Below are positions 57,809 through 58,454 of a DNA stretch of 64,000 nucleotides, in pieces (position 1 is the stretch's first letter; each line of letters opens with the position of its first letter). Under the pieces are notes generated by a model. That model ran no database searches, was not told where the DNA came from, and was given only the letters and a program-made list of their open reading frames with translations. Source of the DNA: Escherichia coli 042 (GTDB lineage: Bacteria; Pseudomonadota; Gammaproteobacteria; Enterobacterales; Enterobacteriaceae); assembly GCF_000027125.1 (NCBI RefSeq), contig NC_017626.1. One strand, 5' to 3'. Position numbers and translations under genes: made by a program.

Positions 57809-58267
57809 GTGTGATTAACGCTGGCCTGATTACTATCAAGCAACAAAACAATTAAGAGAGAACATTATAAATACTGGCAAAAATGCCCAAACAGGGGCAG
57901 GTTTTCGTTCAACCATAAAAAATTATGGCTGATGTTATTATTCAGTTCAAACCGTACGAACGAATTAATTGAACTAATAGCACTTCCGTTTTAAACGGAA
58001 ACGTACAATCGCATAGCTTAAACGACAAAAGAAATATGTTGCTTACGAATAAAACAAAGGCGACCGCAGAGGGTCGCCAGAAGGCATATATTAAACTTGA
58101 ATGCATCGCCAACAATGCCATATTTCCGGCTGGTGAGCAATGTGATTTGTGTGGTGGGCACACCTTCAACACATCCGACCACATGAGCAAGAAAACGGGA
58201 TATACTCACCAAATCCCTTATAAAACGGGGATCGGGATTACCACCCCGCTGGAGTTAACGGCGATAC

Positions 58268-58290
58268 AGACGCGCCACGCGTCTTTTTTT
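58268..58290 (+). terminator. strong intrinsic terminator inside the ORF-poor block downstream of alpA
   Basis: AGACGCGccaCGCGTCT followed by TTTTTTT. Confidence 0.65.
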
Positions 58291-58454
58291 GTATCGACGC
58301 ACACGCACGCCTTATCAATGGTGGGCTGTATGGGGCTGACTTCGGTCAGGCTGGTTTCCGTTAACACCAGTTGTGGTAACCCTGTACAGTCCACCGCCAG
58401 CGAGCTTACCACCTCCTGCGGTGGGTATATCCCAACGTTAACGGAGGCTGCCAA

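Follow-up and report, generated by a model that had tools for sequence, protein, structure and literature searches.

What does the 646-nt block that follows alpA in a small island of Escherichia coli 042 encode? The annotation at the block is an "ash family protein" pseudogene (RefSeq, PGAP), and no RNA is annotated there. We analysed the block (57,809-58,454) within a stretch of 64,000 nt of contig NC_017626.1 (the window; all positions below are those of the window). An earlier note, made from the letters of this DNA, had proposed the block as a candidate regulatory-RNA region lying where satellite elements commonly place immunity RNAs. This general reading is borne out: the block matches the IsrK and C4 families of Rfam above their gathering scores, and an RNA of the C4/CI type sits in the immunity position, in the order known from P4. 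Taken as a whole, the explanation that we consider very probable is that a small P4/PICI-type island, integrated at tRNA-Pro, has its immunity and regulatory region here.

The island and the setting of the block

The block directly follows this gene:

57617..57808, + strand: alpA (from the list of open reading frames), upstream context, homologue of P4 vis/ORF88

The alpA product shares 39% identity with P4 ORF88 over 49 aa (BLASTP, E 8e-11) and matches excisionase/regulator families of PHROG. Its stop is at 57808, and the next family-matched gene (the icd-like gene described below) opens with the ATG at 58455. Two promoter-like sites are located 5′ of alpA (57437-57466 and 57513-57542, promoter scan), and the alpA region is the likely source of read-through, late-type transcripts.

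The island is about 8 kb in size. The replication genes, located 3′ of the icd-like gene, are a DUF4222 gene, a DUF927 primase-helicase gene, and ssb; the replicase, the DUF927 protein, matches PHROG 1139 (a primase family) and shows no homology to P4 alpha by BLASTP (E 1.3). These genes are followed only by ProQ/FinO, PerC, and one small hypothetical gene. A near-identical island in NZ_CP151161 (99.8% identity across the 646-nt block) extends from tRNA-Pro to the PerC gene, after which comes the core gene yejO, and none of sid, psu, and delta is annotated in it. There are no obvious capsid or packaging genes in the island, and no direct repeat of the tRNA 3′ end of at least 15 nt was found at 61000-64000. 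The architecture is kept in 65 E. coli genomes. P4-like satellites sensu stricto are defined by int, psu, delta, sid, alpA, epsilon, as well as alpha (PMC8628076), and the island departs from them in sid, psu, delta, and the alpha-type primase-helicase; it does have the layout of Gram-negative PICIs, with int and alpA, a dynamic zone with immunity RNAs, and a replication zone with primase and SSB (PMC10111431).

A scan of 2 kb returned seven terminator-like sites, compared with 2.5 ± 1.6 in shuffled sequences. This excess, together with the Rfam match above the gathering score and the clustered GTTAACGG sites (see below), places the features of the block beyond chance.

A leader RNA followed by a C4-type antisense RNA

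The two RNAs and their elements are as follows:

58178..58206, + strand: putative leader promoter (ACCACA, 17 nt, TATACT), counterpart of P4 PLE or PisrK
58213..58289, + strand: IsrK/seqA-type leader RNA, 77 nt (Rfam RF01394)
58238-58244, + strand: box a1, TTACCAC, in the leader
58254-58261, + strand: box b1, GTTAACGG, in the leader
58268-58290, + strand: intrinsic terminator, AGACGCG-cca-CGCGTCT plus T run (scan), 3′ end of the leader
58314..58401, + strand: C4/CI-type antisense (immunity) RNA, 88 nt (Rfam RF01695)
58358-58365, + strand: box b′, CCGTTAAC, in the 12-nt loop of the C4 RNA
58373-58379, + strand: box a′, GTGGTAA, in a single-stranded junction of the C4 RNA

The match of the leader to RF01394 is marginal (52.9 bits, with the gathering score at 50; E 1.2e-9); the same family scores 60.8 in P4 and 58.7 in the Stx phage. 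As is characteristic of IsrK, the leader lies directly 5′ of a C4-type RNA and has an intrinsic terminator at its end; it contains two 5′ hairpins, box a1, box b1, and the terminator, its fold has an energy of -26.1 kcal/mol (z -2.5), and its helices covary. The canonical terminator that had been pointed out at 58268-58290 is indeed present, falls within the above-gathering Rfam match, and belongs to the regulatory region as the 3′ end of the leader. The transcript of 0.2-0.45 kb that the earlier note expected to end there is not what we find: the unit is the leader of 77 nt, homology with P4, P1-like, and Stx phages starts at about 58213-58216, and the scan shows no plus-strand promoter-like site above its threshold between the alpA stop and the leader.

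The promoter of the leader is one that we infer from its position and alignment. Its -10 element, TATACT, lines up with the one found in the P4, Stx, P1-like, and IMG/VR modules; its -35 element matches at three of six positions, which is under the scan threshold, and the site is absent from the scan output (no plus-strand promoter-like site above the threshold was found at 57809-58360). The predicted transcription start is at about 58212, since the two AUGs of orf45 in Gifsy-1, at +107 and +119, are equivalent to the ATGs at 58318 and 58330, which puts +1 near 58212. With a good -10 and a weak -35, little RNA may be supplied, or the supply may hinge on transcripts that read through from alpA.

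The C4 RNA is matched over its full model (positions 1-87 of 87) and reaches 77.7 bits, where the gathering score is 45 (E 1.2e-14). It begins about 24 nt after the terminator, has the C4 architecture of a long closing stem around two hairpins, and folds with -40.9 kcal/mol (z -3.8 to -4.3); a GCCA at 58396-58399, directly 3′ of the C4 stem, provides the sequence prerequisite for processing. The proposal of a terminated transcript in the usual position of immunity or antisense RNAs had missed the C4/CI RNA, which lies 3′ of the terminator, and likewise its targets at box b2 and the ribosome site.

Among 17 distinct modules, 96.7% of the cells in the leader-plus-C4 structure are paired and 17 pairs have changed on both sides, compared with 35-49% of cells paired in controls in which the partner was slid by a few columns. 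Taken alone, the C4 helices reach 98.8-100% pairing in the 17 modules, and 11 of their pairs show two-sided changes. The structure of the RNA module scores as well as that of P4 itself. In the minimum-energy fold of the whole leader, a1/b1 are paired in cis with a′/b′. RNA processing, the transcription start, and repression in trans are all proposed here by homology.

Complementary boxes and the icd-like gene

A further copy of both boxes lies downstream of the C4 RNA, at the ribosome site of the next gene:

58406-58412, + strand: box a2, TTACCAC, downstream C4 target, read from the sequence
58437-58444, + strand: box b2, GTTAACGG, downstream C4 target, overlapping the Shine-Dalgarno sequence
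58443-58447, + strand: Shine-Dalgarno sequence GGAGG of the icd-like gene
58455..58694, + strand: icd-like gene (NCBIfam NF033153, phage_ICD_like), in the position of P4 kil

Boxes b′ and a′ of the C4 RNA are complementary both to b1/a1 of the leader and to b2/a2 downstream (CCGTTAAC faces GTTAACGG(AGG)), and all copies of both boxes are perfectly complementary. In the 17 modules, the C4 boxes are paired with a1/b1 in 98.0% of cells and with a2/b2 in 100%, and 13 out of 15 pairs have changed on both sides in each comparison; the slid controls for a2/b2 gave 21-51%. In the 64-kb window there are six GTTAACGG sites (1.8 expected), and three of the six cluster inside 191 nt, arranged +/-/+. In relatives at 93-99% identity, the three box-b copies switch jointly among GTTAACGG, GCAAAAGG, and GTTACAGG; a joint switch of three copies in such close relatives requires recent selection on pairing.

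The start at 58455 behind GGAGG, already singled out in the earlier note as the next convincing one, is confirmed by the family match of the icd-like protein to NF033153 (61.9 bits against a cut-off of 25). Pairwise BLASTP of this protein against P4 Kil found nothing, and the link between the two is phrog_1743, which holds both the icd-like gene and P4 kil. The protein has 79 aa here and 62 aa in relatives, owing to the loss of a stop (C at 58641, where relatives have T). The icd-like gene heads the replication operon, and we predict that it is the target of translational repression.

The eta-like reading frame

The regulatory region is traversed by a long frame:

58036..58632, + strand: eta-like ORF, 198 aa (from the list of open reading frames), counterpart of P4 eta

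This frame exists and runs straight through the terminator, as had been noted; it takes in the promoter, the leader, the terminator, and the C4 RNA and extends over most of the icd-like gene. The accompanying claim that there is no plausible protein before 58455 is correct in that 58455 starts the next family-matched gene, and it does not hold for the 198-aa frame, which by sequence comparison corresponds to P4 eta in position and extent and is intact, with identical start and stop, in four diverged relatives (93-99% identity). The idea that Ash is a pure annotation artefact was dropped for this reason, as the frame is the P4 eta counterpart and is kept open in relatives.

The protein-family matches are confined to part of the frame. 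Pfam Phage_ASH covers only aa 58-147, which is the RNA-encoding stretch, and five PHROG families cover only aa 49-147; in P4, Phage_ASH matches Eta (aa 22-146) and not epsilon. No family was found for the N-terminal 50 aa (PHROG search with the N-terminal 55 aa), and no NCBIfam match for the whole 198-aa ORF. The frame is open in 14 of the 17 modules and broken in the Stx, P1-like, and L009 modules, and variable columns show no bias among the codon positions (56/82, 55/82, and 53/81). Its first start codon is 228 nt 3′ of the alpA stop, and no Shine-Dalgarno sequence is evident. The ORF is also out of frame with the icd-like gene because the spacer is one nucleotide shorter, so that the nested and coupled arrangement of P4 eta and kil is not seen here. 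With no evident Shine-Dalgarno sequence, no coupling to alpA, and a phase other than that of the icd-like gene, the ORF may not support antitermination in the way known from P4.

Of 21 related loci, 9 have an icd-phase frame that is stop-free for 978-2271 nt back to the alpA stop; the other two frames are open for only 13-275 nt. In one related locus, this icd-phase frame has 805 codons and crosses the antisense of real minus-strand cargo genes; it has no protein-family matches outside its RNA-encoding end. A speculative reading, to which we give rather little weight, is that the long eta-like frame of this family stays open so that ribosomes can pass, and not for the sake of a protein product. 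If so, the lineage of the window would be a variant with no cargo and with the coupling to alpA lost, in which a one-base change would have reset the frame; despite this frame reset, the eta-like ORF keeps a length of 198 codons, and its end lies 3 nt 5′ of the next gene's ATG.

The stretch between alpA and the leader

Upstream of the leader, the block contains the following features:

57809..58048, no strand: lineage-only spacer, 240 nt (from comparison)
57884-57909: weak hairpin with a T-rich tail, in the spacer
57984-58000: perfect palindrome TTCCGTTTTAAACGGAA, in the spacer
58049..58157, - strand: block conserved among related satellite loci (BLAST, IMG/VR)
58059-58078, - strand: intrinsic terminator, hairpin GGCGACC-gcagag-GGTCGCC, with a T-rich tail to 58049
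58129-58136, + strand: degenerate Chi octamer GCTGGTGA

Of 5426 E. coli genomes, only 65 contain the 240-nt spacer; it is single-copy in them, lies in this island in every case, and is absent from the IMG/VR relatives; in the checked IMG/VR relatives that have the conserved block (L002-type), this block directly abuts alpA. Being single-copy and confined to 65 genomes, the spacer is not a dispersed repeat of the REP/ERIC/MITE type. Its folds have energies of -8.4 and -7.0 kcal/mol (z -1.7 and -2.7), and 57809..58048 has no protein-family match on either strand.

BLAST finds the conserved block, at 72-95% identity, in about 24 of 80 IMG/VR loci, and its hairpin, which is terminator-like on the minus strand only (scan), is present in 30 of the 80. 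The loop is highly variable among loci, the A tract is conserved, and the stem shows one compensatory change (GGCGACC/GGTCGCC vs GGCCACC/GGTGGCC); in other loci, minus-strand genes stop just to the right of the terminator of this block. Thus the two stem-loops that the earlier note had assigned to the RNA region are present (57984-58000 and 58059-58078), but neither belongs to the RNA unit, one lying in the lineage-only stretch and the other being a minus-strand terminator. At the position of GCTGGTGA, relatives have a perfect Chi, GCTGGTGG. A minus-strand sRNA at 58049-58160 was considered and rejected on present evidence (z -1.0, with only the terminator hairpin convincing). The proteins of the minus-strand ORFs 57945-58190, 58021-58212, and 57604-57846 belong to no PHROG family, and the Rfam scan returned no known RNA in 57809-58212 (E up to 1) and no int-alpA RNA in the window.

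Comparison with known systems

Our statements on P4 rest on the summaries in PMC4825925, PMC3632133, and PMC10111431, and on general background on this phage. According to PMC3632133, IsrK and C4 are the seqA and CI RNA of P4. For Gram-negative PICIs, immunity RNAs and a role of eta have been described (PMC10111431). Similar to P4, the order here is a vis/alpA homologue, an IsrK-like leader with its terminator, the CI RNA, and then kil (the icd-like gene in this island); the two Rfam families are the same (the RF01394 match in P4 is at 8692-8615); the leader terminator is nearly identical, that of P4 being GACGCGCCACGCGTCTTTTTT and sitting between the leader and cI; the complementary boxes come in three sets, of which a1/b1 correspond to seqA and a2/b2, lying over the first gene's GGAGG, to seqC; and a long ORF that matches Phage_ASH crosses the RNA region (197-199 codons in P4, 198 here). 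The two differ in their boxes (TTCACAGG and GTGAGAA in P4, GTTAACGG and TTACCAC here), in about 85 extra nt between terminator and cI in P4, and in the distance from alpA to the leader (∼400 nt here, ∼70 nt in P4). In contrast to P4, the eta-like ORF is neither coupled to alpA nor nested with the kil/icd gene, the replicase is the DUF927 protein instead of alpha, and sid, delta, and psu are missing from the island. The earlier note had named a protein translated across this block as evidence against an RNA; such a protein would not refute the RNA reading, since the homologous region of P4 is, according to PMC10111431, both an RNA gene and a translated eta ORF.

The IsrK and C4 families are also found in P4 order in a P1-like phage (77.5% identity over 288 nt) and an Stx phage. 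The immI region of P1/P7 (c4 RNA, icd, and ant) resembles our block in its C4-family RNA with boxes a′ and b′, in the upstream a1/b1, and in a second pair downstream, a2/b2, which lies at the ribosome site of a gene of the Icd family; the box sequences of P1/P7 differ from those of the island, and in P1 an antirepressor is controlled after icd, whereas here it is a replication operon. The isrK-orf45 (STnc1160)-anrP module of Gifsy-1 in Salmonella likewise has an IsrK-family leader with an intrinsic terminator that is partly read through, and after it a processed species, about 80 nt long and complementary to IsrK (PMC4825925); by analogy, read-through and processing may occur here as well, and both in-frame AUGs (+107 and +119) have been kept. 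The Gifsy-1 module precedes an antirepressor, and its short RNA has been shown to be an activator; in our block, the next gene is Icd-like, with a masked ribosome site of its own. Finally, the island shares with the PICI "Bro zone" (PMC10111431) int and alpA, a dynamic zone with C4 and IsrK matches, and primase with SSB, but its dynamic zone is minimal, with neither a Bro-N type domain nor minus-strand cargo, and only the ProQ/FinO and PerC genes come after its replication genes.

A proposed mechanism

By analogy with P4, P1/P7, and Gifsy-1, a weak internal promoter in the resting island would give rise mostly to short, terminated leaders, and transcripts that read through the terminator would be processed to a stable C4-type RNA of about 80 nt, with RNase P cutting at the base of the C4 stem. 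The C4 RNA would pair with a2/b2 and block translation of the icd-like gene; the untranslated message would then be terminated early, and the DUF4222, DUF927, and ssb genes would stay off. Pairing with a1/b1 beside the terminator would let the C4 RNA feed back on its own synthesis, and the short leader may in addition serve to titrate the antisense species. On transcripts from the alpA promoter, ribosomes on the 198-aa ORF would traverse the leader, terminator, and C4 sequences, which we propose would make these transcripts insensitive to immunity; as for eta in P4, the ORF would be translated only on transcripts that come from upstream, overriding termination. The box sequences set the specificity of immunity, and the pair of this island is TTACCAC/GTTAACGG.

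Alternative readings

The short RNA may have the opposite role. If the logic of Gifsy-1 dominates, the short terminated IsrK-like RNA would be an active regulator in trans, pairing with the C4 region of the read-through mRNA, freeing the ribosome site, and activating the icd-like and later genes; the terminated transcript would then be an anti-immunity RNA and not an immunity RNA. In Gifsy-1, the downstream gene is translated more than 100-fold better when IsrK is supplied in trans, through pairing with the orf45/STnc1160 region (PMC4825925), and the window shows the equivalent a1/b1-a′/b′ complementarity, a cis pairing in the minimum-energy fold that resembles structure A (PMC4825925), and both in-frame AUGs of orf45 (58318 and 58330). 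However, the next gene here is Icd-like with its own ribosome site covered by a2/b2, as in P1/P4, where the C4/CI RNA is the repressor, and no orf45 stop overlaps the next start (AUGG here instead of AUGA). We see this as possible though on the unlikely side; as it concerns the identical module, it is compatible with our preferred explanation. The weak -35 also bears on a different idea, that the module is a decaying relic of a P4-like ancestor, neither expressed nor needed now. The stop-loss in the icd-like gene and the lack of obvious capsid and packaging genes do suggest that parts of the element may be decaying, and the relic reading can further draw on the degenerate Chi (perfect in relatives), the missing sid/psu/delta genes, and the eta-like ORF, which is neither coupled to alpA nor in phase with the icd-like gene. 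We nevertheless find it improbable, in view of the perfect complementarity in three copies of both boxes, the joint switch of three b copies in close relatives, a structure that scores as well as that of P4, and an architecture conserved in 65 E. coli genomes.

Another possibility is that the ORF encodes a functional Ash/Eta protein, and that the nucleotide conservation reflects protein coding instead of RNA. Phage_ASH and five PHROG families match the ORF, PGAP calls an ash family pseudogene, and 14 of the 17 modules have the frame open, but the matches are confined to the part coding for the leader, C4, and a2/b2, no family matches the N-terminal 50 aa, variable columns are even over the codon positions, and the changes are compensatory for RNA pairing. 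In addition, P4 cI is known as an RNA, and the Stx, P1-like, and L009 modules have a broken frame. All this makes a protein explanation quite improbable. Even less credible is a single transcript of 0.2-0.45 kb that runs from just after alpA to 58290 and includes both upstream stem-loops. There is no strong plus-strand terminator from the alpA stop to 58268, so that alpA read-through RNA could end at the 58268-58290 terminator; against a dedicated transcript stand the absence from the scan of plus-strand promoter-like sites at 57809-58200, the start of conservation with other phages at about 58213, the lineage-specific nature of 57809-58048, and the hairpin at 58059-58078, which is a minus-strand terminator.

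Implications

In our preferred reading, in which the block is the immunity region of a P4/PICI-type island, the RNA switch itself is ordinary, belonging to the known immunity system of the P4 family, of which it is a new member with its own specificity. TTACCAC/GTTAACGG defines its immunity type, and the box-b alleles of close relatives, GCAAAAGG or GTTACAGG, lead us to predict heteroimmune variants. As Phage_ASH matches the RNA-encoding eta region of P4 and not epsilon, surveys that use Phage_ASH as an epsilon marker are affected. If the long frame is indeed kept open for ribosome passage, these islands in general, and not P4 alone, would use a "translated spacer" to override RNA immunity, and this device would tolerate the insertion of cargo. 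We predict that the block switches replication of the island on and off, which makes it a target for mutation in studies of induction or of interference with helper phage.

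An RNA module between alpA and the icd-like gene

Two Rfam families match the + strand of the block between alpA and the icd-like gene (57809-58454): IsrK (RF01394) at 58213-58289 (52.9 bits; gathering score 50), here called the leader, and C4 antisense RNA (RF01695) at 58314-58401 (77.7 bits; gathering score 45; E 1.2e-14). The earlier note had guessed at a regulatory RNA in this ORF-poor block, which these matches bear out in kind; the RNA unit was misplaced, and the main RNA, C4, was overlooked. All of the features it listed are found in the sequence:

Features of the block and its borders
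57617-57808, + strand: alpA, separated by 646 nt from the next gene with a family match
57984-58000: palindrome TTCCGTTTTAAACGGAA
58059-58078: hairpin GGCGACC/GGTCGCC
58268-58290, + strand: terminator AGACGCG-cca-CGCGTCT with a T run
58455, + strand: ATG of the icd-like ORF, the next family-matching gene after alpA, with GGAGG upstream (58443-58447)

A 2-kb scan gave seven terminator-like sites, against 2.5 ± 1.6 in shuffles. The terminator at 58268-58290 is the 3′ hairpin of the IsrK match and is nearly identical to the leader terminator of P4 (GACGCGCCACGCGTCTTTTTT). The order IsrK then C4 recurs in three phages: P4 (IsrK 8692-8615; C4, i.e., CI RNA, 8507-8420; directly 3′ of ORF88/vis), a P1-like phage (upstream of icd), and an Stx phage (upstream of a regulator annotated as Rha-type). 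IsrK and C4 are structural homologues of the seqA and CI RNA of the P4 literature (PMC3632133), and both profiles match Gram-negative PICIs (PMC10111431).

The window has one such module; many related loci (numbered L, from IMG/VR) have a second a1b1-plus-C4 module 3′ of the icd-like gene, or a module solely there (L015 3220-3424, L011 from 2944, L017 3111-3347, L048 3217-3482; also L072, L047, L029, and others). The relative L025 carries an int-alpA RNA (RF02996, 55.2 bits) between int and alpA (1095-1161), a family that the Rfam scan did not find in the window at E up to 1.

Covariation of the pairing boxes

The leader, the C4 RNA, and the region downstream carry complementary boxes:

Pairing boxes
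58238-58244: a1, TTACCAC, in the leader, complementary to a′
58254-58261: b1, GTTAACGG, in the leader, complementary to b′
58358-58365: b′, CCGTTAAC, exposed in a 12-nt loop of the C4 RNA
58373-58379: a′, GTGGTAA, exposed in a junction of the C4 RNA
58406-58412: a2, downstream, complementary to a′
58437-58444: b2, downstream, complementary to b′, overlapping the Shine-Dalgarno sequence of the icd-like gene

We aligned 17 distinct modules (alignment A2: the window, P4, the P1-like phage, the Stx phage, and 13 IMG/VR loci). Pairing in the Rfam structures reaches 96.7%, with 17 pairs changed on both sides, against 35-49% when the partner is slid by a few columns. The boxes vary in sequence among the modules and keep their complementarity: C4 pairs with a1/b1 in 98.0% and with a2/b2 in 100% of alignment cells, 13 of 15 pairs being compensatory in each case, against 21-51% in the slid controls. 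Within the window's lineage (93-99% identity) the three copies of box b switch jointly (GTTAACGG in the window, GCAAAAGG in strains MB51 and LH10-b-1, GTTACAGG in NIST0056), and box a is constant. The alignment shows the parts of an RNA switch and the complementarities between them; judged by sequence, box changes with pairing kept are the mark of a functional antisense system that is diversifying in specificity.

In the minimum-energy fold of 58213-58470, a1/b1 pair in cis with a′/b′, a predicted arrangement resembling the inactive structure of Gifsy-1. The 3′ strand of the C4 closing stem, CCACCGC (58391-58397), is also complementary to GCGGTGG (58418-58424); read by eye from the alignment, these two sites covary (CCGCCAC/GTGGCGG; CTATCGC/GCGATAG in P4), so the transcript may form an alternative hairpin before it is processed.

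The eta-like ORF

The 198-aa ORF at 58036-58632 passes through the terminator, as the earlier note stated before writing it off; it has a known counterpart, P4 eta, and the frame is not noise. Pfam Phage_ASH matches its residues 58-147 only and five PHROG families residues 49-147 only, the stretch that encodes the leader, C4 RNA, and a2/b2. Variable alignment columns fall evenly on all three codon positions (56/82, 55/82, 53/81), so conservation of this stretch is RNA-driven. Phage_ASH (PF10554) likewise matches P4 Eta at aa 22-146, which encode seqA, the terminator, cI, and seqC; P4 epsilon is matched by PF25738 instead of PF10554 (eta 8171-8767, epsilon 7891-8175), and PF10554 served as the epsilon profile in a survey of P4-like satellites (PMC8628076). 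In the P4 RefSeq record, cI is still a CDS for a 137-aa "transcriptional repressor".

P4 eta (197-199 codons) begins where vis stops, extends over PLE, seqA, the terminator, and cI, and is nested with kil; when it is translated on transcripts of the late promoter upstream, termination is prevented (PMC10111431, summarising Forti et al., 1999). The window's ORF is of similar length, and four diverged relatives have it intact with both ends unchanged; it stops 3 nt short of the ATG (58636) of the next gene. It differs from P4 eta in starting 228 nt 3′ of alpA, in lacking a clear Shine-Dalgarno sequence, and in using another reading frame than the icd-like gene, because the spacer from GGAGGCTGCC to the ATG is 1 nt shorter. 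In RefSeq, 58036-58416 is an incomplete "ash family protein" pseudogene, and no RNA is annotated. The icd-like gene has C at 58641, where four relatives have T (TAA to CAA), and its ORF is therefore 79 aa long, not 62; this substitution leaves the product of the overlapping 61-aa ORF (start 58636) unaltered.

Nine of 21 related loci keep the icd-phase frame stop-free over 978-2271 nt, as far back as the alpA stop codon (L037, L003, L015, L011, L017, L002, L016, L007, and, longest, L005: 772-3189, 805 codons), against only 13-275 nt in the other two frames. Its Pfam and PHROG matches are confined to the C-terminal ~200 residues, and real minus-strand genes lie opposite it, which points to selection for translatability, as for P4 eta.

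The left half of the block and the putative promoter

Of 5426 E. coli genomes, only 65 have the segment 57809-58048, each as a single copy within this island, and it is absent from the IMG/VR relatives; a search for a protein family, RNA, or repeat in it found none. Next to it, 58049-58157 is conserved among many related loci, and lies directly 3′ of alpA in the relatives that carry it and were checked (L002-type). Its hairpin has a highly variable loop, one compensatory stem change, and a conserved + strand A tract that is a T tail on the minus strand. Since the 2-kb scan rates it a terminator only on the minus strand, and minus-strand genes of relatives end just to its right (RHH-like phrog_949/6522, E down to 1e-60; phrog_21027), it belongs to the other strand; the window has no such genes beside it. 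Thus the two stem-loops assigned to the + strand RNA unit are present, but neither is a member: one is this terminator, and the other, the palindrome, sits in 57809-58048. In relatives this conserved segment also holds a Chi octamer, degenerate in the window (GCTGGTGA).

Variable small minus-strand genes occupy the slot between the conserved segment and the putative leader promoter in relatives (L002 1983-2567, L005 1350-1652); the window's lineage has no gene there (58158-58200). The −10 TATACT (58201-58206) aligns with that of every compared module, and since the Gifsy-1 AUGs at +107 and +119 correspond to the ATGs at 58318 and 58330, the leader probably starts near 58212. The −35 ACCACA has three of six matches, and the promoter scan did not report the site; the slot junction adjoining the −10 may be the cause of the poor −35.

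Island context

In the near-identical island of NZ_CP151161 (~8 kb) the order is tRNA-Pro, int, alpA, the block, icd-like, a small ORF, DUF4222, DUF927, ssb, ProQ/FinO, and PerC, then the core gene yejO; it has no sid, psu, or delta. AlpA shares 39% identity with P4 Vis, and BLASTP relates the island replicase in no way to P4 alpha. This layout fits the Gram-negative PICI scheme (PMC10111431) better than P4 sensu stricto.

Over ~6.4 kb of the island there are eight Chi octamers (GCTGGTGG) on the + strand (57282, 59055, 60093, 60155, 61468, 62377, 62875, 63690) and three on the minus strand, a density far above that of the rest of the window; related IMG/VR loci have 3-6 on the + strand per 6 kb, and P4 none.

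Proposed mechanism

We infer the dynamics of the RNA switch from P4, P1/P7, and Gifsy-1. The internal promoter would yield mainly 77-nt terminated leaders, and read-through RNA would be processed to a C4-type RNA of ~80 nt that covers the ribosome site of the icd-like gene. Masking this site would lead to early termination and keep the replication genes (the DUF4222 gene, the DUF927 primase-helicase gene, and ssb) silent. Pairing of C4 with a1/b1, next to the terminator, would autoregulate the RNA, with the short leader as a possible decoy, and transcripts from the alpA promoter might escape via translation of the eta-like ORF.

The block is a known kind of system, in a small island, with a previously unlisted specificity allele. 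The sole point that may exceed the literature consulted is the long stop-free eta-like frame that runs across the cargo of relatives, outside the window.
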